Below, piece by piece: positions 11,920 to 39,839 of a stretch of 45,771 nucleotides of DNA; within the stretch, counting starts at the first letter, position 1; the number at the start of each line of letters is the position of its first letter. The stretch lies in IMG/VR virus record IMGVR_UViG_3300006114_000017, positions 1-45,771 of that record; one strand, given 5' to 3'. This stretch comes from a virus. The notes beneath the pieces were generated by a model. The model was given only the letters and a program-made list of their open reading frames with translations. It did not search any database and had not been told where the DNA came from. A program made the translations under genes and the position numbers.

Positions 11920-14900
11920 TTAAGCTTGAGGTTCGTTCCAAGAGATACGACCCAAAAGCTGCACACCAACACCATTAAGGTTCTGGGCAACTAGAGTCAA
12001 TGTATCTGGACCATCTGGGTAGATGTTCTTATCAGGTGTAGCGAGTGCTGCAACAGTAGAAGTACCACCGTTGAGGACACTGTTACCAAGGTCGCGGACA
12101 CCGGCAACGTTAACTTCCTGTGTGGTGTCTACAAAGAAACCACCGGTAACTTCACCAGCAGCCAAACCACTAGCAACCGTAACACCATTGGGTACAGAAG
12201 AGTAGTCAGCAATCTGGCTAAGCGATGAGTTCGGGCTGTTTGTACCAGCGACGACGTTTGTCCACTGTGGCAATGTTCCACCATTGATAAGCTGTGGCAC
12301 GCCATTCAAGTAAGCCTTGATAAGCACGTTACCGGCACCAACCCCCTGTGTACCAGTAACCGTAACTGACACGTCAAGCGTCTGCAGCTGCAACTGAACT
12401 CGGTTAGCCAGTTCGTGTGATCCAAGGATAGAACTTGTTTGGCTGTTGTCAACGCTAGGGGCAATACGAATCGACATCAGAGCCTTGGTCTGACCAGAAG
12501 CCAACGTAATTGGAGTAGTCTGACCATAGGTGAACAAAAGGTTGGCGTCAGGCGAGAAACCACCATCCATTGTTACTGCAGTACCCCAGTGGCTAAAGTA
12601 TGGGCTGTGCGTAGGCATTGCCAACTCAACCGTAGTGGGTGCGGTAGCAGAGTATGAGAATGCAGTTCCTGCAAGTCCCATAGCCTGCACTGGAACCGTT
12701 GCGCTGGCGTTAGTCGATACAGAAGCATTGCTAAACGTAATGAAGTTACCGCTGATGGAAGCAACGTATGTGTTGTCGGGGAACAACGTCGGTGCAGTAA
12801 CCTTAGAACCAATTGCAACACCGGTAATAGTTCCGCTACCAATTGGGCTACCAGACGTTAAAGAAAGCGTCAGGGAAGCAGGGGTAGCAATACCACGTGT
12901 CAAACCACCGAAGCTGCTAGCAGTTACAGTTGTGTAATTAACGTATTCAACACCAGTCGTGGCGTTCTTGATCGCAAGAGTGCCTGATGCAGGGAATGCG
13001 CTATTGCCAGCTGGATTCAGCGTATTGTTAACATAGATTGTGGTGTCTGTTGCACCGATGCCAGATGTGGTAGTGGTAATTGGTGGGATCGTAGATGTTT
13101 CGTAACGACCCGGCAAGTTACCAGAGCGCATGTAGGCAGTGGTGTTGATGTTGTTGTTAGCCAGCTTGTGGCAGAACATGATGTTACCATCAGTAGTTCT
13201 CAGGCCCCAACGCACGAAACCAGCTCCGTACCACGAGTAGTCAAGGTACCACATCTGCATCTTGGTAAGGTCAAGCTTGTAACCGCTAGGTCCAGTTCCA
13301 TCAAGTTTGTCGATGTTCCATTGCGACTGTGGCACACGGTTGTCGACAGTGGCTGTAACAGTCACGTAGTTGGCAGTAATACCACGGTAAGCAGGGCTAA
13401 TGGTGATCTGCGTATCGCTAGCGATATCAGTAACACGGTAAGAGCTACCACGGATAACAATGTACTGACCAGGGGTCAGCTGCTTGCTAAAGATGGTTGG
13501 GAAATTGCCATCGGTTGCAGTAACCGTTGTGCTACCGTTTGTTACAGTTGCACGACCAGCAACCTGCTTAATTGAGCTACGAAGAACAGCGTAAAGCTGC
13601 TGACCATCGTACTCGAAGAACATGCCATTTTCTTGGTTGAAAAGACCCATTCTCTGTACAGCACCGTACCAACCATTAACTGTGCAAATAAAGTTTGCAG
13701 GATAATCAGATGGTGAAGTATTGCCAAGAGTACCAGTAGCAGTAATAGTGAACTGAGTGGCATTAAGAATGTTGGCAATAGGGTATGTGCCGTTGTAACC
13801 ACTAGTAATTACACCAGCGATATTTACACTTGTACCAGGGGTAAGGTTGTGCTGTTCACGAGTTGTTACGGTGATCGTCGAACCAGGAGTTGTGCCAGTG
13901 GCAGAAATACCATCAACAGTGAATGCAGTGTTAAGGATCGTACCGGTGGCCATTTCAAGACCCTTACCAGACTGGTAGTGGAAGTTACGACGGGTTTGAC
14001 GAATAGCAGATTGGTGGTTGCTCAAGCTTTGTGGTCCGAACAGCACACCACCGTCAAATGGACGCTGAGCGAACAAAGATTGGTTGCGAGGAGTGATTGA
14101 ACCACCGGTAGGAGTACCACCAGGTGCGCTCAATGCATAGTAGGTAAGACCGCTAGCACTGGTAATACCAGTTACATAGAAGTTACCATTCGCAGCAGAT
14201 TGGCTAGTACCGCTAACGCTAATTTCATTACCAATGCTCAGGCCATGAGGAACGGTTGTCGTTACAGTAATCAAGTTACTTGAGTTGGTAAACGTTGGTG
14301 TACCGCCGATAGCAGCACCGGTGTAGTACTGCTGCTGCCAGACCTGAGTCTTAAATGGGTCAAAGAAACCCGAAGTACCACTAGGAGTACCAAATGTGTT
14401 TACTGTCTTGGCAGAGTAAGTGAACGAGTTTGTGCCGCTTGTTTCTACGATGAAGTTACCGTTGGCTGGAGCGAAGAAAGCATCTTGCACAGAGAATGGT
14501 GTGCCTGTGGCAAGGCCGCCACCACTTGTAAGAACAGTCACTGTCTTGCTGTTGGCACTCATAGTCATACCAGTTACGGTAAGACCATTAGTAGCCAGCG
14601 AAATTGGTGGGTACATGTTATAACCAGCAGGGTGCCAGTTAGTTGTGCCGAGAGCTTCCCACTTAGAAGTCTGGTTACCATACTCAAAGTCGGTGTCAAT
14701 CATCGACTGAGGTGTAGAGACGCGTTGCTTACCCACTGGGTCGTAAAGCTCTTCCACAGGAACTGTGCGTTGAGCATATTCATCAACTGTGATAGTGATC
14801 TTGTCGGTGGCAAGCATGCCAGATGTACCGCCGTTGAACACAACAGTAGTTACACCCTTGCTAGAAGAAGTAGGAAGATTAGTAGTGCTAGAAACCTGGT

Positions 14901-15084
14901 TAGAAACTGTAGCAGTAAAACCAGCTAGAGTAAATACAGGGTCACCAATTTTAAACAATGTTACGCCACGTGTAGTGTTTACTACGGATACAAGACGTTC
15001 CTGTGGAATATACTGGTTGATTACGAGAGTTGAAGTACTCGGTGTAAATACGTAATTATCGTAGTACGATGTTGTTTGTGCCAT
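11920..15084 (-). CDS. Large Thr/Ser/Gly-rich structural protein (1054 aa). Tail or receptor-binding/tailspike-like is a candidate function.
   Basis: ATG at 15082-15084 with an AAGGA SD. Composition is beta-rich and low-complexity. No ATPase or nuclease motifs were seen, so a terminase call is rejected. Confidence 0.45.
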   Translation of the reverse strand: MAQTTSYYDNYVFTPSTSTLVINQYIPQERLVSVVNTTRGVTLFKIGDPVFTLAGFTATVSNQVSSTTNLPTSSSKGVTTVVFNGGTSGMLATDKITITVDEYAQRTVPVEELYDPVGKQRVSTPQSMIDTDFEYGNQTSKWEALGTTNWHPAGYNMYPPISLATNGLTVTGMTMSANSKTVTVLTSGGGLATGTPFSVQDAFFAPANGNFIVETSGTNSFTYSAKTVNTFGTPSGTSGFFDPFKTQVWQQQYYTGAAIGGTPTFTNSSNLITVTTTVPHGLSIGNEISVSGTSQSAANGNFYVTGITSASGLTYYALSAPGGTPTGGSITPRNQSLFAQRPFDGGVLFGPQSLSNHQSAIRQTRRNFHYQSGKGLEMATGTILNTAFTVDGISATGTTPGSTITVTTREQHNLTPGTSVNIAGVITSGYNGTYPIANILNATQFTITATGTLGNTSPSDYPANFICTVNGWYGAVQRMGLFNQENGMFFEYDGQQLYAVLRSSIKQVAGRATVTNGSTTVTATDGNFPTIFSKQLTPGQYIVIRGSSYRVTDIASDTQITISPAYRGITANYVTVTATVDNRVPQSQWNIDKLDGTGPSGYKLDLTKMQMWYLDYSWYGAGFVRWGLRTTDGNIMFCHKLANNNINTTAYMRSGNLPGRYETSTIPPITTTTSGIGATDTTIYVNNTLNPAGNSAFPASGTLAIKNATTGVEYVNYTTVTASSFGGLTRGIATPASLTLSLTSGSPIGSGTITGVAIGSKVTAPTLFPDNTYVASISGNFITFSNASVSTNASATVPVQAMGLAGTAFSYSATAPTTVELAMPTHSPYFSHWGTAVTMDGGFSPDANLLFTYGQTTPITLASGQTKALMSIRIAPSVDNSQTSSILGSHELANRVQLQLQTLDVSVTVTGTQGVGAGNVLIKAYLNGVPQLINGGTLPQWTNVVAGTNSPNSSLSQIADYSSVPNGVTVASGLAAGEVTGGFFVDTTQEVNVAGVRDLGNSVLNGGTSTVAALATPDKNIYPDGPDTLTLVAQNLNGVGVQLLGRISWNEPQA

Positions 15085-15092
15085 TGTTTTCC

Positions 15093-15848
15093 TTAGCCGA
15101 AGTAGTTATGGTTGTTGTCAACACTTGACAATGGTGTTGGGTTCTCGTTGTAGTTAGTAACAACACCACCAGAGATAGTTAGTTGATCAGAGTCAGCAAT
15201 ATTAGGTTGACCAATACTACCATCAACCCATGTTGCTTCTTGGCCAATACTAACGGCGCTAAGGTCAACAAACAATCCAGGCAATGCCCAGTCAATAATA
15301 CCTGTGCCACCTGATGCTGTCAATCTATAAGCAGTATAAAATAAACCATCTGCGATCGGAATAGAAATCAGTGTTGGTGTAGAAGCAGCGGTAATGGTTG
15401 TTGTGGCTAAAGTTGCCCAGTTTGTTGAGCTGTATGAGCTAGCCGACGATGTGTAGTAAGCATTGGGCGTATAACGGTCATATGTGCCTTGCAATCTGAT
15501 TGTTGCTGTACCAGTCCAACCAGCTTCTGCGCTAAGCACAGCAGTAATTGATTGCAAGTCTTGAAGTGTTACAGAAGCATCAGGTGCGCAAATGATACTA
15601 ATATCAACTGCACCATTGCCATTAACATTAAGATTAAGACCAGGGTTAACTGAGCCAGGTTGCGCGTATGCGACATTACCACTCGTTGTCATGTAGCCAA
15701 CTGCTCCATTGCTGAATTGAGCAGCGTAGGCCACTGCAGGAGGGTACACCGCACCAGGTGTCCCATCATTACCATAATTGGTAACAAATTGACCCAATGG
15801 CCATGTCTTCTTTTGTTGCTTTGGGCCTTTACCTTCTGCGATGTTCAC
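15093..15848 (-). CDS. Hypothetical structural protein (251 aa)
   Basis: GTG start at 15846-15848, preceded by a strong AAGGAG SD 6 nt upstream. Confidence 0.45.
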   Translation of the reverse strand: MNIAEGKGPKQQKKTWPLGQFVTNYGNDGTPGAVYPPAVAYAAQFSNGAVGYMTTSGNVAYAQPGSVNPGLNLNVNGNGAVDISIICAPDASVTLQDLQSITAVLSAEAGWTGTATIRLQGTYDRYTPNAYYTSSASSYSSTNWATLATTTITAASTPTLISIPIADGLFYTAYRLTASGGTGIIDWALPGLFVDLSAVSIGQEATWVDGSIGQPNIADSDQLTISGGVVTNYNENPTPLSSVDNNHNYFG

Positions 15849-25230: not shown

Positions 25231-25314
25231 TGGTCGATGGGGAGAGATTCGAACTCCCGTACCCGAAGGATCTGGTTTACAGCCAGACGCGATTGGCCAC
25301 TCCGCCACCCATCG
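25231..25314 (-). tRNA. tRNA-Tyr (anticodon GTA), type II with a long variable arm. CCA is encoded.
   Basis: Hand-folded cloverleaf: acceptor CGATGGG/CCCATCG, 3-bp D-stem, anticodon stem TCTGG/CCAGA with loop CTGTAAA, long variable arm, T-arm GGGAG-TTCGAAT-CTCTC. Confidence 0.7.
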
Positions 25315-25319
25315 ATTTG

Positions 25320-25390
25320 CTGAGGGAGAAGGACTCGAACCTTCAACAAAAGCTCCAAAGGCTCCCGTGTTGCCATTACACCATCCCTCA
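25320..25390 (-). tRNA. tRNA-Gln (anticodon TTG)
   Basis: Acceptor TGAGGGA/TCCCTCA, anticodon loop CTTTGGA, T-arm GAAGG-TTCGAGT-CCTTC. The anticodon stem has two G-U pairs. Confidence 0.6.
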
Positions 25391-25412
25391 ATGTTTATTG
25401 CATGGCATGCAG

Positions 25413-25499
25413 CGGAATGAGTAGGATTCGAACCTACGGAGGCTTTGATACCTCGCCGGTTTAGCAAACCGGTGCTTTCGACCACTCAGCCATCATTCC
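25413..25499 (-). tRNA. tRNA-Ser (anticodon GCT), type II with a long variable arm
   Basis: Acceptor GGAATGA/TCATTCC, anticodon stem CCGGT/ACCGG with loop TTGCTAA, long variable arm, T-arm GTAGG-TTCGAAT-CCTAC. Confidence 0.65.
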
Positions 25500-25504
25500 T
25501 TATG

Positions 25505-25576
25505 CTCCCAGGGTAGGGATCGAACCTACGACCGAGCGATTAACAGTCGCTTGCTCTGCCGCTGAGCTACCTGGGA
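25505..25576 (-). tRNA. tRNA-Asn (anticodon GTT)
   Basis: Acceptor TCCCAGG/CCTGGGA, D-loop AGCTCAGCGGCAGAGC, anticodon stem AGCGA/TCGCT with loop CTGTTAA, T-arm GTAGG-TTCGATCCC. Confidence 0.7.
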
Positions 25577-25584
25577 TTGTAAAA

Positions 25585-25941
25585 CTAGTCTCCTTTGACC
25601 ACTCTGATACTATCATAGTCGAAGTGTTGGGTAGAGAACTCAAATACGCGTGAATTCTCTAGACCAATGATTCTGTGACGTAAACCGACAGGTACGTGGA
25701 AAAGGTCTCCCGCATTAAGCACCTTTTCCTGTGCGAGCTCGATATCGTCTGTCTCACCGTAAAGTACGATGACCTTACCGTTCTCTACGTAGAAGGTTTC
25801 GTCCTTGATGTTGTGATAATGGTAAGAAAGCTTCTTACCCTTATTCATGTGCAAGATCTTGGCGCAGTACTTCTCAGAGTTACAAAGAATCTCTTCATAA
25901 CCCCAGCCCTTTTCTACAAATTCCTTATTCAAAGAAGTCAT
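25585..25941 (-). CDS. Small cupin-fold sugar-phosphate isomerase-like protein, with the pattern of the type II phosphomannose-isomerase C-terminal cupin (118 aa)
   Basis: Pattern WG.E..L.....Y..K.L......LS.H.H....E...V..G...V ... VP.G..HR is typical of PMI-type cupins. The ORF tool starts at GTG 25944. The ATG at 25941 is preceded by an AAGGAA SD. Confidence 0.5.
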   Translation of the reverse strand: MTSLNKEFVEKGWGYEEILCNSEKYCAKILHMNKGKKLSYHYHNIKDETFYVENGKVIVLYGETDDIELAQEKVLNAGDLFHVPVGLRHRIIGLENSRVFEFSTQHFDYDSIRVVKGD

Positions 25942-26242
25942 CACTGTTTATTCCTTTGTCATCGATGTAAAAATCAGCAGAAGGTTTACCCATGATTAGA
26001 TGATGGTACTTACAACCCCATTGCTTAAGCTGACGCTCCGTAATGTCACGGAAAAGTATTTCTACAAGCTTTGGGTCATTATTTGTCCTATGCATACCTC
26101 GAGCCGTAAAATAAACGACTGTATGACCCTCTGAATAAAGCTTGTTTATCTGATCAATACGTTCTTGAACAGGCAGTGCATTTTCATACTTACCATCAGT
26201 AAGTGTGCAGATGGTGCCATCAATATCTACAACGTATCTCAT
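25925..26242 (-). CDS. Small HAD-superfamily phosphatase (105 aa). Proposed GmhB-like heptose-1,7-bisphosphate phosphatase role.
   Basis: HAD motif I VDIDGTI, motif II FTAR, a Lys in GKPS, and motif IV YIDDK. The pathway role comes from gene context only. Confidence 0.45.
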   Translation of the reverse strand: MRYVVDIDGTICTLTDGKYENALPVQERIDQINKLYSEGHTVVYFTARGMHRTNNDPKLVEILFRDITERQLKQWGCKYHHLIMGKPSADFYIDDKGINSDDFFE

Positions 26243-26628
26243 CGTTCTAAGATCCTAGTGGTTGAATAAGGCTCAAGTCTAGTGAAATAATCAATCTTCT
26301 TTGCGTACTCTTTACCAGGGAAGTCCTTGCCGAACCAGTCAGCACCAGCAAACCAGATATCTGGGGATAAAGCCTTGACGATATTGATCAGTTCTTCATC
26401 TGAGTCAAAGAGTAGCGTTTGATCAACATACTTAAAAGCATCAATAACAAATTGTCTATCATACTGATTATGGAAAGGTCGATCAGAGCCTTTCTTCTCT
26501 TTTACACGCCTATCAGTGTCGATAGCAACAGTTAGGGTGTCACCATGCGATTTGGCATGTTTTAGAAGTGCTACATGGCCTTTATGAATGACATCAAACG
26601 TGCCAGTTAAAAAGATCTTCTTATCCAT
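26239..26628 (-). CDS. hldC: D-glycero-beta-D-manno-heptose-1-phosphate adenylyltransferase (HldC / HldE domain II-like cytidylyltransferase fold)
   Basis: FLTGTFDVIHKGHVALLKHAK...GDTLTVAI.TDRRVKEKKGSDRP...VD.TLLF..D...I.....PDIWF.GADW parallels E. coli HldE domain II (GVFDILHAGHVSYL..ARKLGDRLIVAVNSD..TKRLKGDSRP...). The HxGH nucleotidyltransferase motif is present. Confidence 0.7.
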   Translation of the reverse strand: MDKKIFLTGTFDVIHKGHVALLKHAKSHGDTLTVAIDTDRRVKEKKGSDRPFHNQYDRQFVIDAFKYVDQTLLFDSDEELINIVKALSPDIWFAGADWFGKDFPGKEYAKKIDYFTRLEPYSTTRILER

Positions 26629-27406
26629 TTAGATACTCGTCTACAGTCTTGAATTTGTAGTCACCCCACTCTGGCTTAGCACAGGTATACGTCTGATACT
26701 TGCCAACCAGGTGTTCTGGGAACGGTACATATTCTATAGCACCGTTATAAAGGTATGCAACTGACTCAGCAACGTCTTTAAAGCTAATTGGGTTGCTTGT
26801 GCCAAGATCATAGATGCCAGAAGGCTTATCGTTGTTGAGAACGATTTCAACAAGGTCATCAACGCAGACAAAGTCTCTCTTGAAGTTCTCTGAGCCTTCA
26901 AACAGCTTTAGAGAGCCTGTCTCTTTAATTTGGGCTGAGAACTTGCTAACAGGGCTTGCCTGGTCACCTTTACGGCCTTCATAATCACCATATACGTTGA
27001 AGTAACGAAAACCTTGGATAAGAGAGAACTTATCCATGTTATCTTGCACCCAGTAGTCAACTGTCAGCTTTGACATAGCATATTGGTTCTTAGGGTTAGG
27101 AATACCCTGCAAATCGCCATAAACGGAAGCAGAAGAAGCATACTTAACAGGGATACCAAAAGAGATAGCAATCTCAAAGAGGTCTATCGTGTATTCAACG
27201 TTCCAGGCATACAGTTTCTTAACATCCTTTTCAGTAGTGCTGGAGATAGCACCCTGGTGCAAAATAAGATCAACTTTATCCCATTCTTTAAAGTTATAAA
27301 GGAAGTGATAAGCATCTTCTTTATCAATAGGCAATAAAGGCTTGTTAGAAAGAACCTTGCTAAAGTTTCTACCAATGAAACCTTCTGAACCAGTCAAAAT
27401 GATCAT
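26621..27406 (-). CDS. hldD: ADP-L-glycero-D-manno-heptose 6-epimerase (HldD/RfaD-like SDR)
   Basis: [14 protein letters not shown]... shows the N-terminal Rossmann motif. [27 protein letters not shown] and [20 protein letters not shown] are near-identical to conserved HldD segments ([50 protein letters not shown]). Confidence 0.8.
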   Translation of the reverse strand: [261 protein letters not shown]

Positions 27407-28131
27407 ATCGTTGTAACCCCTCTATGCTTTACCACTTCAGAAGCGCATTTATTAGCATACTCAATGCTTTTGATGATATTGCCGCAATTAGCATACTCAA
27501 CGACAAGTGCTGCCATGAAAGCATCGCCTGCACCTGAGGAGTCCTTGACTTCTACCTTGTCAACGTGATAACGGTTACCGTTGTACTCGCAACCATCTCC
27601 ACCCATCGTATGGATGATCTTCTTCTTGAAAGATTCTGTAACTTTGGGGTCAGAGTTCTTGTATTCGTAATCGTTGATCTTAATGATGAAAGCCTTTTTG
27701 GCCCACTTCCCTAGCTTCTTCTTAGTATCGAGGAATACACGTGGGTGTGACTTACAAATATCTTTGATGTCGTCTTCTGTTAGATAACCTTTGTTATAGT
27801 CAGAAATAACTACAATGTCATATTCGCTGTAATCGATATCGTTTTTAAACCTACCATAGTTTGGCTCTGTATCGACTCTAATAAACATGTGGTTAGTTGC
27901 TTCATGAACGTATCTTGTCTTAGTAATAGACCGCCAATTATGGTTGGTTCTAATGTTGACGTCATCCGCAAACTTTTTGATGTTGTTTAACACGTTCAGT
28001 GCCATACCAGGATTCTTTACCTCATGCATGGCGTTTAGCACAGGTACTGGAATATCGGGTGCAAGACGCATTGCATCACAATAAACAAATACGTCCATGC
28101 AACTTTCACCTATTACTAAAATTTTAGTCAT
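27403..28131 (-). CDS. hldA: D-beta-D-heptose-7-phosphate 1-kinase (HldA / HldE domain I-like, PfkB ribokinase family)
   Basis: ILVIGESCMDVFVY matches VMVVGDVMLDRYWY. PVPVLNAM...NPGMALNVLNNIKKF matches PVPVVKV...RPGGAANVAMNIASLG. PfkB signature GAGDAFMAAL...ANKCASEVV matches GAGDTVIGVL...ANAAAGVVV. Confidence 0.7.
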   Translation of the reverse strand: MTKILVIGESCMDVFVYCDAMRLAPDIPVPVLNAMHEVKNPGMALNVLNNIKKFADDVNIRTNHNWRSITKTRYVHEATNHMFIRVDTEPNYGRFKNDIDYSEYDIVVISDYNKGYLTEDDIKDICKSHPRVFLDTKKKLGKWAKKAFIIKINDYEYKNSDPKVTESFKKKIIHTMGGDGCEYNGNRYHVDKVEVKDSSGAGDAFMAALVVEYANCGNIIKSIEYANKCASEVVKHRGVTTI

Positions 28132-28613
28132 TAGAAAATAGGTAAGCCATCTTTTTTAAGATAGATCATGGCAGGGGCCTTGATCAAATATGCATCAATC
28201 ATAGCCTTTTCTGTAGCTTCACGGCTAGTAGGAAAGTAACTTTGTACATTTTTGAATACCGTAGCTAAGCGTTCAGGGTTGAGCGGACGGTGAGTAGGAC
28301 CATGCGTTGGATAATCAGAATAACCAACCAACATAACAGGCAAGTTTTGTTCATCAATATCAATTTTGACTTGCTCATAAGGTCGTTCGATTACAAAAGG
28401 AGTAATTGAATAAACTACTGGACGAAACCCATCGATAGCAAGACCAGCAGCCAAGCTAGTAATTGATTGCTCAGTGAGACCAAGGTTGAAGAACCGTTCA
28501 GGAAACTTTTCTTTGAACTCAGTCATCTCTTGCTCTACGTCGCCTGTAATCAATACGATGCGATCATCTTTTTCAGCGAGCTTAACGATTGTCTTACCGA
28601 ATGCTACTCTCAT
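28131..28613 (-). CDS. Transketolase C-terminal (pyrimidine-binding, Pyr-domain) subunit. Short, about 160 aa.
   Basis: GLTEQSITSLAAGLAIDGFRPVV...F matches the transketolase/DXS Pyr-domain consensus. Start moved to ATG 28613 (MRVAFGK), which forms an ATGA overlap with the upstream subunit stop. The typical C-terminal domain appears absent. Confidence 0.55.
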   Translation of the reverse strand: MRVAFGKTIVKLAEKDDRIVLITGDVEQEMTEFKEKFPERFFNLGLTEQSITSLAAGLAIDGFRPVVYSITPFVIERPYEQVKIDIDEQNLPVMLVGYSDYPTHGPTHRPLNPERLATVFKNVQSYFPTSREATEKAMIDAYLIKAPAMIYLKKDGLPIF

Positions 28614-29335
28614 GCCAGTTCCTCCAATGCTTGCTTTTCTAGGTCTCCACCTAGCCAATTTGAGTGCCATTTAGGTTGGTTTTCCATAAAGCTTACACCC
28701 TTACCCTTGATTGTGTTTGCAACAATCAAAGTAGGAGATACTGCAGCTTCAAAATTGATGTTGATAAGATCATCGTTGTGACCATCAATTTCATGCACTT
28801 CCCAACCAGCAGCTTGTGCAGCAGCAATAAGAGCACGGTCTACGGGCATGATTTCGTCAACGTACCCAGAACCCTGGATCTTATTGTTATCTACGATAAC
28901 AACCAAGTTATTGAGCTTTAGGCGTGCAGCAATAAGAATTGATTCCCAAGTAGTGCCTTCTTGGCATTCGCCATCACCCATAAGAACAAACACTTTTTCA
29001 TTTGAGTTGTTGAGCTTACGAGCAAGAGCCATCCCCATAGACACTGGGAAACCATGTCCCATGCTACCTGCGGTGCAATAAATGCCATTCTCAGGCTCAT
29101 AATGAGGGTGACCTTCAAGGGTGGGGTTATAACCTTGTTCACGCAAAAGCACATAGTATGACCAGCAGCTGTGCCCCTTGCTCAAAACAAAACGGTCATT
29201 CTTTCCCATGATTTTATCAAAAAGATTGATCAGAATTTCAGTACAACTAAAGCTACCGCCATAATGATAACCACCATTAGCTTTGCTAATCTCAATAGCA
29301 TCTCTGCGTACTTGCTTTGATCTTTCGTTTAACAT
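28610..29335 (-). CDS. Transketolase N-terminal (thiamine-diphosphate-binding) subunit
   Basis: GHSCWSYY, GSMGHGFPVSMGMALA, GDGECQEGTTWESILIAARLKLNNLVVIVDNNKIQ (the TPP-binding GDG-x25-N motif) and KGKG are present. ORF-tool start is TTG 29362. The ATG at 29335 overlaps the upstream stop (TAATG). Confidence 0.65.
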   Translation of the reverse strand: MLNERSKQVRRDAIEISKANGGYHYGGSFSCTEILINLFDKIMGKNDRFVLSKGHSCWSYYVLLREQGYNPTLEGHPHYEPENGIYCTAGSMGHGFPVSMGMALARKLNNSNEKVFVLMGDGECQEGTTWESILIAARLKLNNLVVIVDNNKIQGSGYVDEIMPVDRALIAAAQAAGWEVHEIDGHNDDLININFEAAVSPTLIVANTIKGKGVSFMENQPKWHSNWLGGDLEKQALEELA

Positions 29336-29901
29336 TAATTGGCCTTTCCAGATAGATTGCAAATTAGAATTTTTTTATCTTCATCGTAATCAAACTCACA
29401 TGCGTTGTCATACTCTTTAATATAGTTAATTAATTTTTGCTTTGTAGTTTCTTCATCACCAAAATCAAGAGCCATACCACTAGAAGAATCACCAAGCAGA
29501 TCAATATCATCAATCAGAATAGTGTGAGCTTTGCGAGGGCGAGCAAAGATTACGTTTAACTCATCCATCAAAGGAACTGCTGGGTGTTCTACATTCGGGT
29601 CACCGCTTGCGCTGTGAGCATCGAGCCAGAAATCTAGCGGGACATCATAAGGCTCAATCATCTCTGATAATTTTTCTTTTGAGTCGCCTAGAAATAACAC
29701 TACTCTGTTGTCATTATCAAACTTGCTACAACAATTATCGTAGAAAGATTTATTGAACTCAACAGTTATAACCTTTTCATAACCAAGACCAAGTGCTATT
29801 TCTACTGTATAGCCATGTTGTGTACCAGTTTCTACAAAGATATTATTTCTCTTATATTTAGAGAACATCAATGTCATTGCTTCTGTGCTTCTATCTGCCA
29901 T
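29335..29901 (-). CDS. Putative class I SAM-dependent methyltransferase (188 aa). Sugar O-methyltransferase is a candidate function.
   Basis: Gly-rich motif-I-like VETGTQHGYTVEIA is followed by an acidic residue at the end of beta-2 (EKVITVEF). No SIS motif is present, so it is not GmhA. Family assignment is tentative. Confidence 0.3.
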   Translation of the reverse strand: MADRSTEAMTLMFSKYKRNNIFVETGTQHGYTVEIALGLGYEKVITVEFNKSFYDNCCSKFDNDNRVVLFLGDSKEKLSEMIEPYDVPLDFWLDAHSASGDPNVEHPAVPLMDELNVIFARPRKAHTILIDDIDLLGDSSSGMALDFGDEETTKQKLINYIKEYDNACEFDYDEDKKILICNLSGKAN

Positions 29902-30911
29902 TATTCCATCTCAATCATTATTCTACCGGCAATGCCGCTTCTAAGTGTATCAAATGCTTCATTTACTTCGTCAAGTTTATATCTGTGAGTAATGAACTCA
30001 TCAATATAAAGCTTCCCAGCCTTCTCGAGCTTAACATAACGCAAGATATCGTTAGAAGGATCTGTCTTGCCACCCTGGGTAGCCTTGATACTAAGACCAT
30101 TACCATTAAAGAAGCTGAGTGCATTGACGATTTCAAGTGACGTTCCTGGCTTGGGTTGACCCACAAGAATCATTCGGCCATTGTTAGATAGATAGCCAAA
30201 GCTCTTCTTAATAACATCGACGTTTCCAGTCGTATCAATAACAACGTCTACTTTACCTTCAAACTCTGTTTCTGAAGTGTTGTAAAAGAAGTCAGCACCA
30301 GCCATGAATGAAAGGTCGCGCTTGCTTTCATTGTTGTCAATAGCAACAATTGGGCTAAGGCTACGCATAGCTGCACCTTGGATGAGGTTAAGCCCTACAC
30401 CACCCGTACCGACAACTGCAACGCTTTCACCAAACTTAAAATCGCACTCATTGTCGATAATACCTAGTGCGGTAGTCAAACTGCATCCAAGGAGCGCAGC
30501 GAGGTCATTAGGGGTCTCTGAAGGGACTGTAGTGAGTCGGTTCTCTGACACGATAGCCCACTGAGCAAGAGTATTTACCTTGCCACTACTAAAAGTCTTG
30601 TCACCAAGGGTGTACTGAGGAAACGCAGCATCGATACCAGTACCTGGTCGCCAGTGCATAACAACCTTGTCACCTACTTTAACAGTGGTTACTCCAGGGC
30701 CAATGTCTTCTACAATGCCACAACCCTCATGACCCATAAGGTGAGGAAGGAACTTGCCATTACCCTTGTTGCCATTGATCTCGTGTAGTTGTGAGCCACA
30801 GATACCGCTGACAAGGACACGAACCTGTACTTGACCCACTTGGAGCTCAGTAAGGCCAACATCTTCAATAGAAAGAGGAGCGTTGAGCTCTTTGAGAACG
30901 GCAGCCTTCAT
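29901..30911 (-). CDS. Zinc-dependent medium-chain alcohol/polyol dehydrogenase (MDR family)
   Basis: GHEGCG catalytic-zinc motif, GxGxxG NAD-binding motif (VVGTGGVGL), and the ~335 aa length typical of threonine/sorbitol dehydrogenase-like MDRs. Confidence 0.65.
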   Translation of the reverse strand: MKAAVLKELNAPLSIEDVGLTELQVGQVQVRVLVSGICGSQLHEINGNKGNGKFLPHLMGHEGCGIVEDIGPGVTTVKVGDKVVMHWRPGTGIDAAFPQYTLGDKTFSSGKVNTLAQWAIVSENRLTTVPSETPNDLAALLGCSLTTALGIIDNECDFKFGESVAVVGTGGVGLNLIQGAAMRSLSPIVAIDNNESKRDLSFMAGADFFYNTSETEFEGKVDVVIDTTGNVDVIKKSFGYLSNNGRMILVGQPKPGTSLEIVNALSFFNGNGLSIKATQGGKTDPSNDILRYVKLEKAGKLYIDEFITHRYKLDEVNEAFDTLRSGIAGRIMIEME

Positions 30912-31759
30912 TAGATCAACTCGTACAATGACTTGACGGTGCTGAACTTCTTATTGATGTCAAATGTTCTAGCCATATCACGGTAAGGAACATTTGTATT
31001 AACTCGGTCAAGCAGAGAGATGAACTCACCAACCGTTTCCATGCTCCACTTGTTAACAGCAGCAATGAAAGGTGCATTTGGTACGCCAACAACTGCCTTA
31101 CAACGCTTAGCTAGCTTACCAATATCAACCAAAGTCAAATTGTGATCTTGAGTGCTGCGGTAGCCTTCCACCTTGACAGTAGTAATGACTTTCTTACCCT
31201 CATCGGTCAAGTATTGCAGCAATGCAGCAAAGTTCTTGTCTTGTTCTTCTCTAGACATAAGAAGGACTGGGCTAACAGGGTATCCATTAATTACTAGGCA
31301 GTCAAACTCTTCGCCATCGAGTACATCCTCGGCAAAGCACTCTTCATCAAGTACAACATCATCAATAGAGTTGAATGGCTTGTTTAGGTGAGGCAAGTTG
31401 TACTGGTGCAGGTAGTTACCCATTTCATATACCCACATTGAGTAGCTGCTAAGGGTGTTGTCCTGCTTCGAGTAGTGGATAGGATCATAAATGCTATCGC
31501 CAAGCAAAGCGTGGCACCACAAGTCAATTGAATAACGTGGGTGTGGTGCATCAATAAAGCTTACGTTTGTATCTTGGATCAGCTCAACAAGTTGAGAACG
31601 ATACTGAGCAGGAATTAAGATGTTGCATTTAATTTGTTTGTTGTTTTCACACAACTTCTTCAAAACATGCAATGCAACAATGCAATCACCATGGCCTTTA
31701 TCACAATGGAAGTAAAGGTCGTTAGTCATTAACATATCTAAGTTAATTGATTTATTCAT
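30911..31759 (-). CDS. Putative GT9-family (heptosyltransferase-like) glycosyltransferase
   Basis: N-terminus ...GHGDCIVALHVLKKL resembles the GT9 N-terminus (xSSLGDVIhTLPAL). C-terminal ...LTLVDIGKLAKRCKAVVGVPNAPFIAAVN resembles GT9 ...LxELAALIxxAxLxIGNDSGPMHLAAA. The start is uncertain: the ORF-tool GTG at 31795 overlaps tRNA-Asp. The first ATG (31759) lies 3 nt from the tRNA 3' end, and later ATGs lie at ~31735 and ~31729. Confidence 0.45.
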   Translation of the reverse strand: MNKSINLDMLMTNDLYFHCDKGHGDCIVALHVLKKLCENNKQIKCNILIPAQYRSQLVELIQDTNVSFIDAPHPRYSIDLWCHALLGDSIYDPIHYSKQDNTLSSYSMWVYEMGNYLHQYNLPHLNKPFNSIDDVVLDEECFAEDVLDGEEFDCLVINGYPVSPVLLMSREEQDKNFAALLQYLTDEGKKVITTVKVEGYRSTQDHNLTLVDIGKLAKRCKAVVGVPNAPFIAAVNKWSMETVGEFISLLDRVNTNVPYRDMARTFDINKKFSTVKSLYELI

Positions 31760-31761
31760 AG

Positions 31762-31835
31762 CGACCTTGATGGGACTCGAACCCACGACCCCCACCGTGA
31801 CAGGGTGGTGCTCTAACCAACTGAGCTACAAGGCC
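31762..31835 (-). tRNA. tRNA-Asp (anticodon GTC)
   Basis: 5'-GGCCTTGTAGCTCAGTTGGTTAGAGCACCACCCTGTCACGGTGGGGGTCGTGGGTTCGAGTCCCATCAAGGTCG. Anticodon stem CCACC/GGTGG with loop CTGTCAC. T-arm GTGGG-TTCGAGT-CCCAT. Confidence 0.7.
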
Positions 31836-32371: not shown

Positions 32372-32920
32372 TCAATTATTTGGCAATTCTGTCAAAATAT
32401 TGAAAGAAGCAGCAAGATCAGCTGGCATCATTTGGTAAGGGTTGCGGTCGAATACAATGCCGCCTGCCCACAAGGATTGTGCTACTACGGCACTACAAAT
32501 CATGGTGTTGCTATTTGTGAACTGCATCTTAATACCAGTCAGCAACTCCAAGGCAATACTCAAGATGGTTAGGAAACCATACTTATCCTTAATGAAGCTC
32601 TTGCAAGCAGAAACCGTTTGATCACGGCTTTGCTTGTTAAGCTTTGTTGTAACGTAGTAATACTCTACGTCTTTGTATTCACTAATGTTGCTTACGATAA
32701 CACCACGGCCAACAGCCTCAACGATGGTTCCACCTTCATCGATGATCATAGCTGCATGGTTCCAATGAGCAAAAGGCTTCATCTTTCCGTGGTAACGGAT
32801 GAATTGACCAAAACGAATGAACTTAGCTAGAATGCCCTTAGATGAAACCAGGATGAAGTCACCTGGTACATACTTTGTTGGGTCTTGTCCTGCGGCATAT
32901 ACCTTATATGTCGTAGTCAT
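32372..32920 (-). CDS. Permuted NlpC/P60 (YaeF/YiiX-like) papain-fold peptidase. Candidate endolysin or peptidoglycan endopeptidase.
   Basis: The His motif HWNHAAMII precedes the Cys motif NTMICSAVVAQS. This is the circularly permuted His-then-Cys order seen in the YaeF/LRAT branch. Assigned from the motif pattern only. Confidence 0.35.
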   Translation of the reverse strand: MTTTYKVYAAGQDPTKYVPGDFILVSSKGILAKFIRFGQFIRYHGKMKPFAHWNHAAMIIDEGGTIVEAVGRGVIVSNISEYKDVEYYYVTTKLNKQSRDQTVSACKSFIKDKYGFLTILSIALELLTGIKMQFTNSNTMICSAVVAQSLWAGGIVFDRNPYQMMPADLAASFNILTELPNN

Positions 32921-35299: not shown

Positions 35300-35566
35300 T
35301 TAGTTAGCTTTGTAAGCTACAAGTGCCAAGTTCTTTAGGCACTCTTCTGGGGTGATCCCATTTACGCTTGATAGTTTATTGATAAACACCATCATAACAC
35401 CAGCAAGTGAGCTGAAGAGTTGGATGGGATCACTCTCGAGGACCATTTCATAAGCTAGTTCCTCTTGGCCGCTGATGATTGCTGTCATCAAAGCGACTAC
35501 GTTGCCAATGTTCTCTGTTACAGAATCCATTATGCCTCGGTAGACGCCTTCAAGAACCAACTCCAC
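35300..35566 (-). CDS. Small hypothetical protein (88 aa)
   Basis: ORF track. Confidence 0.35.
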   Translation of the reverse strand: MELVLEGVYRGIMDSVTENIGNVVALMTAIISGQEELAYEMVLESDPIQLFSSLAGVMMVFINKLSSVNGITPEECLKNLALVAYKAN

Positions 35567-36051
35567 TTTTGGTGTTGATCAATGCGTTCAGCAATGAAGT
35601 TTGCAATACCTTGCTCGTTATCTTTGTCAGCAAGAACAAAGACCTTTTTAATGTGATCAATGTATTCGTTATTCATATCTAAGAATTGCTTAGCAAGATT
35701 ACGTGCATCATCATCGTTAGAACCTACTTCTTTAATTCTACTAAGTCCAGACAATTGGCTCATTACAAAAGGAGCTTTAGCATCAAGCTTTCTGATGTTT
35801 TCTGCAATTGGGTCAATGTTTTCGTAGATATCATCTACGATCTCATCAAAGAACTTGTGATATTGATAGAAGTCATTACCAACAACATTCCAGTGGAAAC
35901 CATGAATAGTGTGATAGAGAACGTATGCTTCAGCAAGCATTCTTTTCAGAGCAGTGACCAAATCACTAACATCTTCTTCATATTCTGGGTTTCTAGTGTC
36001 GTCTTCTACTTCTGTTGCACTGACGACTCTAAAGCCATTCCAATTGTCCAT
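35530..36051 (-). CDS. Dps/ferritin-like protein (DNA-protection-during-starvation family; 173 aa)
   Basis: The ferroxidase-site motif block ...YHTIHGFHWNVVGNDFYQYHKFFDEIVDDI... matches the Dps signature HWNVxGxxFxxLHxxFEE. The length is right for a Dps four-helix bundle. Confidence 0.55.
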   Translation of the reverse strand: MDNWNGFRVVSATEVEDDTRNPEYEEDVSDLVTALKRMLAEAYVLYHTIHGFHWNVVGNDFYQYHKFFDEIVDDIYENIDPIAENIRKLDAKAPFVMSQLSGLSRIKEVGSNDDDARNLAKQFLDMNNEYIDHIKKVFVLADKDNEQGIANFIAERIDQHQKWSWFLKASTEA

Positions 36052-38759: not shown

Positions 38760-39839
38760 TTATTCCCAGCTGGTTGGTTTGTCATTGTTAGTTGAATTGA
38801 AACGATCTTCATTCAACAAATCAATTAATCTATTGCTGCTACCAGTGATTGGTCGAGCTGGCGTTGGGAAGTTAGATATAGTTTGTGGGAAATTAAGCTC
38901 AAGGTTAATTCCTGCTCCAGGACCAGATGACCCTTTTTCTGGCGTTTGCTTTGTAGGCATTGGTTCTTGACCAGTTTCAAGCTTAGTTTTCTGTTGTGGT
39001 GGGTTACTAGTCTCTTGCTCACTCTTAGTAGAAGTTTCTTCTTCAAGAGAAGGTTCTGGCATAGCTTCTGTTTTATCACCAATTGTTTTAGGAGCTGGCT
39101 GCCAAGTTGTGGGAGATGGTTGTGGTGTGCTAGGAGGAGTCTTTGATGGCTTACCAGGAACAGTGAAAGGTGGAACTGTGATTGGCTTAGTAGGAGCCAA
39201 TGGGTGAGTCTCGAGAGGCATGATGCTACCAACTACGGGGTTAGCAGGGCTTGCAAAGCTCTGTCCACCACCAGAATCTGGCGTATTGTTGATATCATTG
39301 CTATTGTCGCCATTTTCATTACCGCTTGAGTTGCTACTAGGCAAGTTCTTCAATGCATCGCTAAGGCCACCACCTTCTGCACCTGCAGCGGCCTCTCCAG
39401 CGCCAGCGACTGCTTCTCCAGCACCAAGAAGCTCTGGGATAGCAAGAAGAGGACCAGCAGTCACAATTGTGCTTGCTGTGACCATGCGAAGTTCCTTAGC
39501 AGCGAACCCCTTACCAGCTTCTGACTGGTAAACTTGGTTATCTGTCAATGCATAAGGAATAACGTTAACAGTTGCGTGCGCTTTGCGCAGCATTTCTGTT
39601 GCAATGCCTTGGTTTCGGTATTCTGGCTCGACGTAAACACCATCCATGATGTAGTTGCCACTAGCTTGCTTTTCAGCAGTGAAATAACCGATTCTTTCGT
39701 CTCCAACCATTGCTTCAACAAGAAGACCAGAGAACGTGCCACCAGTCTTGTATTGCATTGGGCCAACGTTAGCAACAATTCGAACCTTGTCACCTTGTTC
39801 TTCAAGGATCTCATTAAGTCTTGGTGGGATAGTAGCCAT
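38760..39839 (-). CDS. N-terminal GNAT acetyltransferase-like domain fused to a long Pro/Thr/Ser/Gln-rich (mucin-like) low-complexity tail (359 aa)
   Basis: VYVEPEYRNQGIATEMLRKA matches the GNAT acetyl-CoA-binding motif A (Q/RxxGxG/A). The tail reads ...PTKPITVPPFTVPGKPSKTPPSTPQPSPTTWQPAPKT... Confidence 0.4.
   Translation of the reverse strand: MATIPPRLNEILEEQGDKVRIVANVGPMQYKTGGTFSGLLVEAMVGDERIGYFTAEKQASGNYIMDGVYVEPEYRNQGIATEMLRKAHATVNVIPYALTDNQVYQSEAGKGFAAKELRMVTASTIVTAGPLLAIPELLGAGEAVAGAGEAAAGAEGGGLSDALKNLPSSNSSGNENGDNSNDINNTPDSGGGQSFASPANPVVGSIMPLETHPLAPTKPITVPPFTVPGKPSKTPPSTPQPSPTTWQPAPKTIGDKTEAMPEPSLEEETSTKSEQETSNPPQQKTKLETGQEPMPTKQTPEKGSSGPGAGINLELNFPQTISNFPTPARPITGSSNRLIDLLNEDRFNSTNNDKPTSWE

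Follow-up and report, generated by a model that had tools for sequence, protein, structure and literature searches.

Introduction

The closest described relatives of the locus considered here are the "LPS/heptose" cassettes (LPS, lipopolysaccharide) of T4-like cyanophages (T4-GC 304-308), found in P-SSM2, P-SSM5, S-SSM7, S-CAM1/3, S-T4, Bellamy and SynMITS9220M01 and, in an extended form, in S-SM2 and P-TIM68. The locus itself is an island of ten genes (g1 to g10) between two tRNA sites of the virus record IMGVR_UViG_3300006114_000017, of which the whole stretch from position 1 to 45,771 (45,771 nucleotides, the window hereafter) was analyzed. Genes for "heptose-related lipopolysaccharide synthesis" are listed in the genome announcement of an S-SM2 relative (PMC7378029), such genes have been grouped under cell-wall modification (PMC12801897), and the cyanophage cupin family has been treated as a mannose-6-phosphate isomerase gene for carbon metabolism that is abundant in viromes (PMC9602691). 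Our search of the literature on the cassette returned no experimental work, only annotation labels such as "LPS genes". Experimental work does exist for another phage cluster, in which a HAD/kinase enzyme, a cytidylyltransferase and a GT-B enzyme put one or two heptoses on 5-hydroxymethylcytosine (5hmC) in E. coli (bioRxiv 10.1101/2023.12.21.572611).

The island shares with the cyanophage cassettes a cluster of homologous kinase, epimerase, nucleotidyltransferase, HAD phosphatase and cupin genes (35-67% identity, tblastn), and its proteins fall into the protein families of the cyanomyovirus cassette (PHROGs 8133, 7878, 540, 1238 and 7851), with PHROG matches across the island at E values of 1e-31 to 1e-89. 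The kinase recurs in 32 cyanomyovirus records, including S-SM2 (58% identity), P-TIM68 (50%), S-SSM7, S-CAM1/3, P-SSM2/5, S-T4 and Sf-CH5/8; the annotation there is carbohydrate kinase or rfaE. The core of the cassette is already catalogued in marine phages, and the island is a variant of it. A preliminary description of the window, made from the letters alone, had held that such a pathway would be unusual in a phage; with the core cassette present and annotated in 32-35 cyanomyovirus records and mentioned in PMC7378029, this claim of novelty is overstated. The enzyme classes that it read are mostly right, and Pfam and NCBIfam matches confirm the transketolase N and Pyr domains, the cupin, the PfkB kinase, the HAD protein, the cytidylyltransferase-like protein, the short-chain dehydrogenase/reductase (SDR) epimerase and the Zn-dependent alcohol dehydrogenase (ADH). 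What is new here is twofold: a split mini-transketolase and a methyltransferase-fold gene sit in the slot of the relatives' fused thiamine enzyme, and an unclassified GT9-like family recurs next to the cassette.

We put at roughly 0.6 the probability that the island makes and transfers an ADP-heptose-type nucleotide-activated sugar, by a route proposed from the family assignments of its proteins. The cupin g1 would isomerize a ketose phosphate, most simply sedoheptulose-7-phosphate, to D-glycero-D-manno-heptose-7-phosphate in place of a SIS-type GmhA; the HldA-like PfkB kinase g5 would add the anomeric phosphate; and the minimal HAD phosphatase g2 would take off the distal phosphate. The HldC-like g3 would then form the nucleoside-diphosphate heptose, probably ADP-heptose, the HldD-like SDR g4 would epimerize it at C6'', and the GT9-fold enzyme g10 would move the sugar onto an acceptor, for which a host envelope glycan, a virion protein and DNA are the candidates. 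The ADH g9 and the mini-transketolase g7/g6 (together with g8 in this phage) may form a separate, tightly linked module that either feeds the ketose precursor or tailors the sugar.

The heptose-type enzymes

The bacterial pathway to ADP-L-glycero-beta-D-manno-heptose uses the same classes of kinase, nucleotidyltransferase, epimerase and transferase (WaaC, WaaF, TibC/AAH). The pairing of a PfkB kinase with a cytidylyltransferase-type transferase belongs to the ADP-(beta)-heptose route and not to the GHMP/GDP-heptose route (Kneidinger/Valvano-type pathways). The HldA, HldC and HldD assignments of the preliminary description hold in the sense that the heptose models are the best for all three proteins and by wide margins, but not at the level of the NCBIfam equivalog cut-offs. 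The best match of g5 is TIGR02198 rfaE_dom_I at 96.6 bits (cut-off 345), with ribokinase next at 35.9; that of g3 is TIGR02199 rfaE_dom_II at 99.8 bits (cut-off 181.5), with TagD at 73.7; and g4 scores 204.6 bits against TIGR02197 heptose_epim (cut-off 274.6) and 41.7 against GalE. Ribokinase and TagD, which the same description had named as a contrary outcome, score below the heptose models. Against the phage families, g5 matches phrog_8133 at an E value of 1.6e-85, g3 matches phrog_7878 at 1.8e-40 and g4 matches PHROG 540 at 2.4e-60. The motifs GAGD in g5 and GTFDVIHKGH in g3 are present in the sequences.

The four best solved relatives of g4 are all HldD structures, the top one from E. coli (PDB accession code: 1eq2, E 2.7e-45), and the next family follows at 5e-9. 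In the alignment of g4 with 1eq2, read by eye, the ASSA and YxxSK motifs and two further stretches (one ending in KG) are retained, and the HldD catalytic residues Ser116, Tyr140, Lys144 and Lys178 (two-base mechanism) all align. Compared with 1eq2, g4 is without about 24 residues after the first beta-alpha unit, in the N-terminal cofactor-binding region.

The four HAD motifs of g2 are found by inspection (DIDGT, T-A-R, K-P and DD), and g2 looks like a catalytically competent HAD enzyme, but it is no GmhB orthologue. The small HAD protein that had been placed at the GmhB step turns out to be of the EcbF/BcbF capsule-phosphatase type, with 45.6 bits against TIGR01689 and 19.7 against HAD-IIIA (cut-off 44.6); it matches a "capsule biosynthesis protein" of known structure (PDB accession code: 9iqw) at an E value of 4.6e-13 and phrog_1238 at 6.4e-31.

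Compared with the bacterial pathway, then, the island has a cupin for the SIS isomerase, an EcbF/BcbF-type phosphatase, scores below the cut-offs and a glycosyltransferase that the GT9 model PF01075 does not see, and it carries extra ADH, transketolase and methyltransferase-fold genes.

The proposed isomerization step

The pathway had been described as complete. A tblastn search with E. coli GmhA gives no match to a SIS-type GmhA in the window or in the phage-type loci L001-L006 and L087-L095, and the Pfam and NCBIfam scans of the ten island proteins give no SIS domain; the cyanophage cassettes are alike in having no SIS-type GmhA in the regions examined. Completeness would require the cupin g1 as a replacement. 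The same GmhA query matches 20 cellular loci with the same mini-transketolase, and these loci are without a g1-type cupin.

The g1 protein matches Cupin_2 at 32 bits and phrog_7851 at an E value of 1e-48, and the putative metal ligands H42, H44, E49 and H90 are invariant across its family. When the family profile is compared with the PDB, D-lyxose ketol-isomerase (PDB accession code: 2y0o) is found at 4e-8 and D-lyxose/D-mannose isomerase at 1.5e-6, followed by the Cap5F epimerase cupin (1.4e-5) and mannose-6-phosphate isomerase (1.5e-5). The label "PMI-type" (PMI, phosphomannose isomerase) is right as to an isomerase-like profile, but g1 is closer to the D-lyxose/D-mannose ketol-isomerases and falls below the cut-off of the PMI model. 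The conversion of a ketose to a manno-configured aldose, as carried out by these isomerases, would have the stereochemistry needed to go from sedoheptulose-7-phosphate to D-glycero-D-manno-heptose-7-phosphate. A g1-type cupin adjoins a kinase, transferase or HAD gene in 35 cyanomyovirus records. On these comparisons an isomerase role appears more likely for g1 than an epimerase role.

The glycosyltransferase and its acceptor

The first gene of the operon, g10, gives no match in Pfam, NCBIfam, PHROGs or PDB sequences, and a tblastn search against 50,697 phage records finds no match either, in which the island differs from the cyanophage cassettes. A word-indexed database returns close relatives only; a full HMMER scan of 1.8 billion representatives gives 278. 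Of the 85 family members in the alignment, A2 alone gives a hit to PF01075 (E 0.007), and the profile of the family reaches a GT9 structure (PDB accession code: 3tov) at a non-significant 0.16, so that the preliminary label "GT9-like" does not extend to membership of the sequence family.

The label does agree with the predicted fold. The AlphaFold2 model of g10 based on the 85-sequence alignment has a mean pLDDT (predicted local distance difference test) of 93 and a pTM (predicted template modeling score) of 0.92; an earlier model from a six-sequence alignment was unusable (pLDDT 51). In a Foldseek search of the PDB with this model, 22 GT9 chains come first (best E 1.7e-6), including WaaC with ADP-heptose analogues, WaaF, the protein O-heptosyltransferase TibC and a Veillonella GT9, and a clear gap separates them from other GT-B enzymes. 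In the Gly-Asp pair of the family, G24 never varies and D25 is kept in at least 90% of the sequences; the match of this pair to the N-terminal "hlGD" stretch of the GT9 structure is weak (E 0.16, not significant). The model of g10 thus combines a GT-B fold closest to WaaC, WaaF and TibC with the N-terminal Gly-Asp catalytic motif expected of a GT9-type enzyme.

Members of the g10 family are found beside the same cassette in the viral contig groups L087-L089/L095 and L090-L096 (all ten related contigs) and, at 36-44% identity, in the metagenome contigs L147-L149, and one stands directly after the kinase in a bacterial (Opitutaceae) metagenome-assembled genome (MAG; L014). That g10 uses the product of the cassette is best supported by this recurrent linkage, and it is from the association that we infer the donor.

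In BFVD, the 270-residue uncharacterized S-SM2 protein E3SJ84 is among the structural neighbors of g10 (E 5e-5). S-SM2 gp199, also of 270 residues (L001 6192-7004), which sits between the thiamine enzyme and the kinase and has "LGIGD" at its N-terminus, may be this protein. Comparisons of the g10 family by hhalign with S-SM2 gp199 (E 0.047) and with gp193 are not significant.

DNA as the acceptor deserves separate mention. The 5hmC-heptose phage cluster (bioRxiv 10.1101/2023.12.21.572611) brings together a kinase, a HAD enzyme, a cytidylyltransferase and a GT-B enzyme to use heptose, the same enzyme logic as that of g5, g2, g3 and g10, and it is conceivable that the activated heptose hypermodifies the phage's own DNA, for example as heptosyl-5-hydroxymethylcytosine, and so evades host nucleases. 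We consider this improbable. The glycosyltransferases of those clusters resemble T4 beta-glucosyltransferase and adjoin 5hmC-forming enzymes, whereas g10 resembles GT9 enzymes and not the T4 glucosyltransferases, and no cytosine methyltransferase, TET/JBP-like oxygenase or hydroxymethylase is found among the open reading frames (ORFs) scanned, which are part of those in the window; the window covers 45 kb of a genome at least 132 kb long.

The thiamine-dependent module

The two-subunit transketolase of the preliminary description is real as far as the N and Pyr domains go. The g7 protein scores 99 bits against Transketolase_N and 182 against NF004559. Among solved structures it comes closest to the split transketolase of Carboxydothermus hydrogenoformans (E 1.2e-44), and in that alignment, read by eye, it retains the "GDG...NN" cofactor motif as well as the His-containing motifs SKGH, GHP and WH. 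The g6 protein scores 67.8 bits against Transket_pyr and matches the same split enzyme (PDB accession code: 6yaj) at 1.8e-16. Residues of g6 were compared by way of the C. hydrogenoformans sequence, in the numbering of E. coli transketolase (canonical substrate-binding residues His26/66/100/261, Arg358, His461, Asp469, His473 and Arg520). The g6 family keeps the equivalents of Arg358, Glu411 (the cofactor-activating Glu) and His473. The pair departs from a canonical transketolase (EC 2.2.1.1) in that it has PP and Pyr domains and the His motifs of the N domain but neither the C-terminal domain nor the full set of pocket residues.

Relatives of g7 form more than 100 metagenome clusters at 67-100% identity, and pairs of the g7/g6 type occur in 50 viral contigs and in 80 genomes (SAR11, Chlorobium, DPANN archaea and others). 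In cellular polysaccharide loci (SAR11 single-cell genomes, Chlorobium, DPANN archaea and L043) the pair is 40-62% identical to that of the island, reaching 75% in a short (1.8 kb) contig of an "Oligoflexia" MAG. These loci are like the island in commonly having the pair with an ADH, a PfkB kinase and an HldC-like transferase; they differ in having a SIS isomerase and no g1-type cupin, kinases and epimerases only 22-35% identical to g5 and g4, and a cellular context. L043, which lies beside a chain-length determinant, adds a GmhA-like gene, an HldE-like fusion, a methyltransferase and a sugar aminotransferase.

The ADH g9 matches phrog_2640 at 1e-89 and is 63-67% identical to the ADHs of S-SM2 and P-TIM68, in which the ADH is directly followed by a thiamine enzyme, the order of the two being that of the island. 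A homologous Zn-dependent ADH (42-91% identity) adjoins the thiamine enzyme in nearly every locus. The third member of the module, g8, has no family match in Pfam, NCBIfam or PHROGs, and a sequence search of the PDB is weak (E 0.003). Its 43-sequence profile matches the O-methyltransferase YrrM (7e-5) and PIMT (9e-4) over the S-adenosylmethionine (SAM)-binding N-terminal part only; the earlier "SAM methyltransferase-like" thus applies to a class I methyltransferase-like N-terminal region. The protein is 44% identical to S-SM2 gp194 and is absent from the closest relatives of the phage.

The relatives provide a natural exchange at this position. L087, at 79% nucleotide identity, is collinear with the window throughout the region except for window positions 29897-28117 (L087 10863-12073), a 1.8-kb segment that holds g8, g7 and g6 here and a single gene for a 400-residue E1_dh+Transket_pyr protein in the L087-type relatives. 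The exchanged segment is bounded precisely by the stop of the ADH gene and the start of the kinase gene, and the kinase beside the swap is less conserved (70%) than the other island genes (78-95%). S-SM2 and P-TIM68 hold the fused thiamine gene in the same slot, and their fused protein of about 400 residues is unrelated at BLAST level to the split pair of the island. Because the position is conserved while distant homologues replace each other in it, the thiamine-dependent step is an integral, selected and ADH-coupled part of the operon.

In one proposal for this step the transketolase only boosts sedoheptulose-7-phosphate from pentose phosphates, and the ADH and the methyltransferase are optional tailoring enzymes. 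The thiamine-diphosphate and His-containing N-domain motifs of g7, typical of transketolases, and the three retained residues of g6 speak for it, as do the cellular loci that pair the same mini-transketolase with GmhA-like and HldE-like genes, and the several cassette cyanophages (such as P-SSM2 and S-CAM1) whose inspected records list neither an ADH nor a thiamine enzyme near the kinase and cupin, which suggests an add-on. A pure supply function does not explain the near-constant ADH beside the thiamine enzyme, and it has to contend with the altered residues described below, the missing C-terminal domain and the fact that hosts with a Calvin cycle or a pentose-phosphate pathway already make sedoheptulose-7-phosphate. 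We hold it to be possible but on the doubtful side; the making of sedoheptulose-7-phosphate, which the preliminary description had assigned to the pair, is not established for so divergent and ADH-linked an enzyme, and it leaves the ADH without explanation.

The observations that weigh against a plain ADP-heptose route can be drawn together at this point. As to the core enzymes, g5, g3 and g4 all lie under their equivalog cut-offs, the Hld-like proteins are 15-25% shorter than their bacterial counterparts, g2 stands outside the GmhB subfamily, and the nucleotide in the product of g3, probably ADP, involves a choice between ADP and CDP. The cupin scores 18.8 bits against the PMI C-terminal model (PF01050, type II phosphomannose isomerase), under the Pfam cut-off of 23.6, and from its resemblance to Cap5F/WbuC epimerase cupins it could be a nucleotide-sugar epimerase. 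In the thiamine pair, the equivalents of His461 and Asp469, which bind phosphate or hydroxyl groups in canonical transketolases, are absent and that of Arg520 is Lys or variable across 111 transketolase-family members, and the pair often occurs with methyltransferases and a short-chain reductase, often with a PfkB kinase too; the altered pocket and the company of ADH, methyltransferase and reductase hint at a possible end product other than plain L,D-heptose. Lastly, the LPS of marine Synechococcus, in work by Snyder et al. from 2009, is said to lack heptose.

A different or extended sugar would accommodate part of this. The product might be an octose formed by C2 transfer onto a hexose phosphate (compare the transaldolase-initiated GDP-octose route of lincomycin), a C2-branched or extended sugar, or a nucleotide-linked alditol phosphate; in one variant the thiamine enzyme would add a two-carbon branch or extension, the ADH would reduce it and g8 would methylate it. 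Precedents reportedly include YerE/YerF (yersiniose), the E1-like AviB1/B2 and AlmDI/DII (C2 branches) and LmbR (octose). The changed acceptor pocket fits such a product, and so does the exchange of fused and split thiamine enzymes in situ, by which the thiamine step is selected within the operon; moreover, even where HldD-, HldC- or HAD-type genes are not detectable, the ADH keeps company with the thiamine enzyme, frequently along with a methyltransferase and a short-chain reductase. Yet the kinase, transferase and epimerase match the heptose models best, the HldD-type residues are conserved, and g10 is closest to heptosyltransferases. We judge a product of this kind unlikely, the tailoring variant included, and retain an ADP-heptose-type sugar as the preferred product. 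A CDP-alditol (TarJ/TarI-like) reading of the ADH and the transferase was also considered and is not preferred, since the kinase, epimerase and glycosyltransferase fit an aldose-1-phosphate/heptose logic.

In many of the IMG/VR contigs L103-L132 the Zn-dependent ADH and the mini-transketolase pair are present, but genes of the HldD, HldC, HAD or cupin type are not detectable; one of them (L110 5348-14101) has a short-chain reductase, a full-length PfkB kinase and several methyltransferases instead of the heptose-type genes. Because so many viral contigs have the module without the cassette genes, the module is more widespread than the heptose cassette.

Organization and relatives of the island

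The ten genes behave as one unit, as seen in their overlapping junctions, their PHROG matches, the synteny with S-SM2 and P-TIM68 and the shared tRNA-flanked site. All lie on the minus strand and fill the interval between two tRNA sites (Table 1), and the co-directional, tRNA-bracketed island of the preliminary description is borne out by ARAGORN and by the ORFs. The starts of g10, g7 and g6 were refined by means of homologues and independent gene calls: g10 starts at 31759 rather than 31795, 2 bases past tRNA-Asp, g7 at 29335 and g6 at 28613. With these starts, adjoining genes overlap at nine of the nine junctions, by 1-20 nucleotides each, and the g6 start overlaps the g7 stop as ATGA.

Table 1. 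Genes of the island and the tRNA genes that bound it, with positions in the window.
Feature	Position	Strand	Assignment	Basis
tRNA cluster	25231..25576	minus	Asn, Ser, Gln, Tyr; downstream boundary of the operon	ARAGORN
g1	25585..25944	minus	small metal-binding cupin, candidate aldose-ketose isomerase replacing GmhA; likely start ATG at 25941	Cupin_2, phrog_7851
g2	25925..26242	minus	minimal HAD phosphatase, 105 residues, capsule-associated EcbF/BcbF type, candidate for the GmhB step	TIGR01689, PDB 9iqw
g3	26239..26628	minus	cytidylyltransferase-family nucleotidyltransferase, HldC-like	TIGR02199, phrog_7878
g4	26621..27406	minus	SDR epimerase, HldD-like (ADP-heptose 6-epimerase type), N-terminal part shortened	TIGR02197, PDB 1eq2
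g5	27403..28131	minus	PfkB sugar kinase, HldA-like	TIGR02198 rfaE_dom_I, phrog_8133
g6	28131..28613	minus	transketolase-like Pyr subunit, 160 residues, without C-terminal transketolase domain	Transket_pyr
g7	28610..29335	minus	transketolase-like thiamine-diphosphate-binding (PP) subunit, 241 residues	Transketolase_N, NF004559
g8	29335..29901	minus	class I methyltransferase-fold protein, accessory	family profile
g9	29901..30911	minus	medium-chain Zn-dependent alcohol dehydrogenase	Pfam ADH_N, ADH_zinc_N; phrog_2640
g10	30911..31759	minus	GT-B glycosyltransferase, GT9 (heptosyltransferase)-like fold, unclassified family	predicted structure
tRNA-Asp (GTC)	31761..31835	minus	upstream boundary of the operon	ARAGORN

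A scan of the region for promoters and terminators finds sites that are not enriched over shuffled sequence. A sigma-70-like near-consensus promoter (TTGACA-16 nt-GATAAT, 11 of 12 matches; 32395-32368, minus strand) lies upstream of the small genes found ahead of tRNA-Asp and the operon, in a region whose promoter-like total equals chance expectation, and it is hence no evidence of function.

The GC (guanine plus cytosine) fraction is 0.413 in the island and 0.470 in the rest of the window, as had been remarked from the letters, and windows of 6.2 kb elsewhere are all at 0.450 or above, which makes the island the stretch of lowest GC. The low GC and the fact that genomes of bacteria and archaea hold close homologues of the transketolase pair are what one would cite for cellular DNA mis-assembled into a phage contig, or for a very recent one-off acquisition. 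The distribution of the island makes either hardly credible. Relatives at 70-79% nucleotide identity hold it at the same tRNA-flanked site; at least ten IMG/VR contigs have it between the same tRNAs and flanking phage genes, at 70-91% protein identity; and an identical g7 is present in at least 22 contigs, the two shown carrying the same island, with flanks that encode a cyanomyovirus-type virion protein. We reject cellular contamination on the ground that the island recurs at the same site across related viral contigs.

Because many contigs share it between the same tRNAs, the island is a stable feature of a recurrent uncultured phage lineage. The description of it as a horizontally acquired moron agrees with the low GC and the flanking tRNAs but not with its presence at the same site in relatives, among which only the g8-g7-g6 segment differs. 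L087 and L090 also have tRNA-Asp in the same position. The downstream cluster, Asn-Ser-Gln-Tyr here, is Asn-Ser-Gln-Ile(TAT) in L087 (14611-15036) and Asn-Gln-Met in L090 (15303-15529). From the differing tRNA sets at a constant island it follows that tRNA genes turn over there while the island stays.

Flanking genes

The carrier phage otherwise shares little with T4-like cyanophages, and most of the flanking ORFs have no family match. Megablast of the island against the 50,697 phage records gives only a 54-nucleotide tRNA match, and tblastn of a flanking 371-residue ORF against the phage records gives nothing. A 1054-residue protein (11920-15084, minus strand; Ser/Thr 24.5%) matches the cyanomyovirus "virion structural/fibre protein" family phrog_5838 at an E value of 1.8e-246 and shares 39% identity with proteins of S-RSM4 and S-PM2; apart from the island and the 54-nucleotide match to tRNA-Asn, this is the sole strong cyanophage link.

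The structural proteins had been called unusually Ser/Thr-rich. This is true of three fibre-like ORFs (1357-1962, 28%; 11920-15084, 24.5%; 15093-15848, 20%), but most ORFs are at 9-15%. Ser/Thr richness as evidence of glycosylation was set aside, the enrichment being limited to a few fibre-like ORFs.

Three other flanking genes, all on the minus strand, gave matches. The gene of a Dps/ferritin-like protein (35530-36051; Pfam Ferritin, 71.8 bits) stands upstream of the island at a distance of a few kb, and two other metagenome contigs likewise have a similar ferritin gene upstream of their cassette. A 359-residue protein (38760-39839) has a GNAT acetyltransferase domain, and a 182-residue protein (32372-32920) is weakly similar to C92 permuted papain-like amidases and to phrog_1128.

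Implications

Taken to its furthest extent, the analysis would be compatible with a GmhA-independent route in which the cupin is a new kind of heptose(-phosphate) ketol-isomerase, the transketolase/ADH/methyltransferase module builds or tailors a non-canonical higher-carbon sugar, and the GT9-like family puts this sugar on the phage's own virion proteins (TibC/AAH-like O-heptosylation) or DNA rather than on host LPS. We think it unlikely that all of these hold jointly, and offer the combination tentatively.

Heptose-type cassettes are widespread in marine phages, and the practical surprise of finding one more is limited because the cassette is already catalogued. The island is a compact and self-contained test case: its five core enzymes are joined by a linked transferase, and the thiamine step has been swapped naturally. 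If the isomerase role of the cupin is true, g1 would be a possible non-SIS heptose isomerase; the role of the ADH/transketolase pair is a second point of wider interest. The target of g10 would explain why marine phages invest in such sugars, be it for superinfection exclusion, a virion glycan coat or DNA protection.

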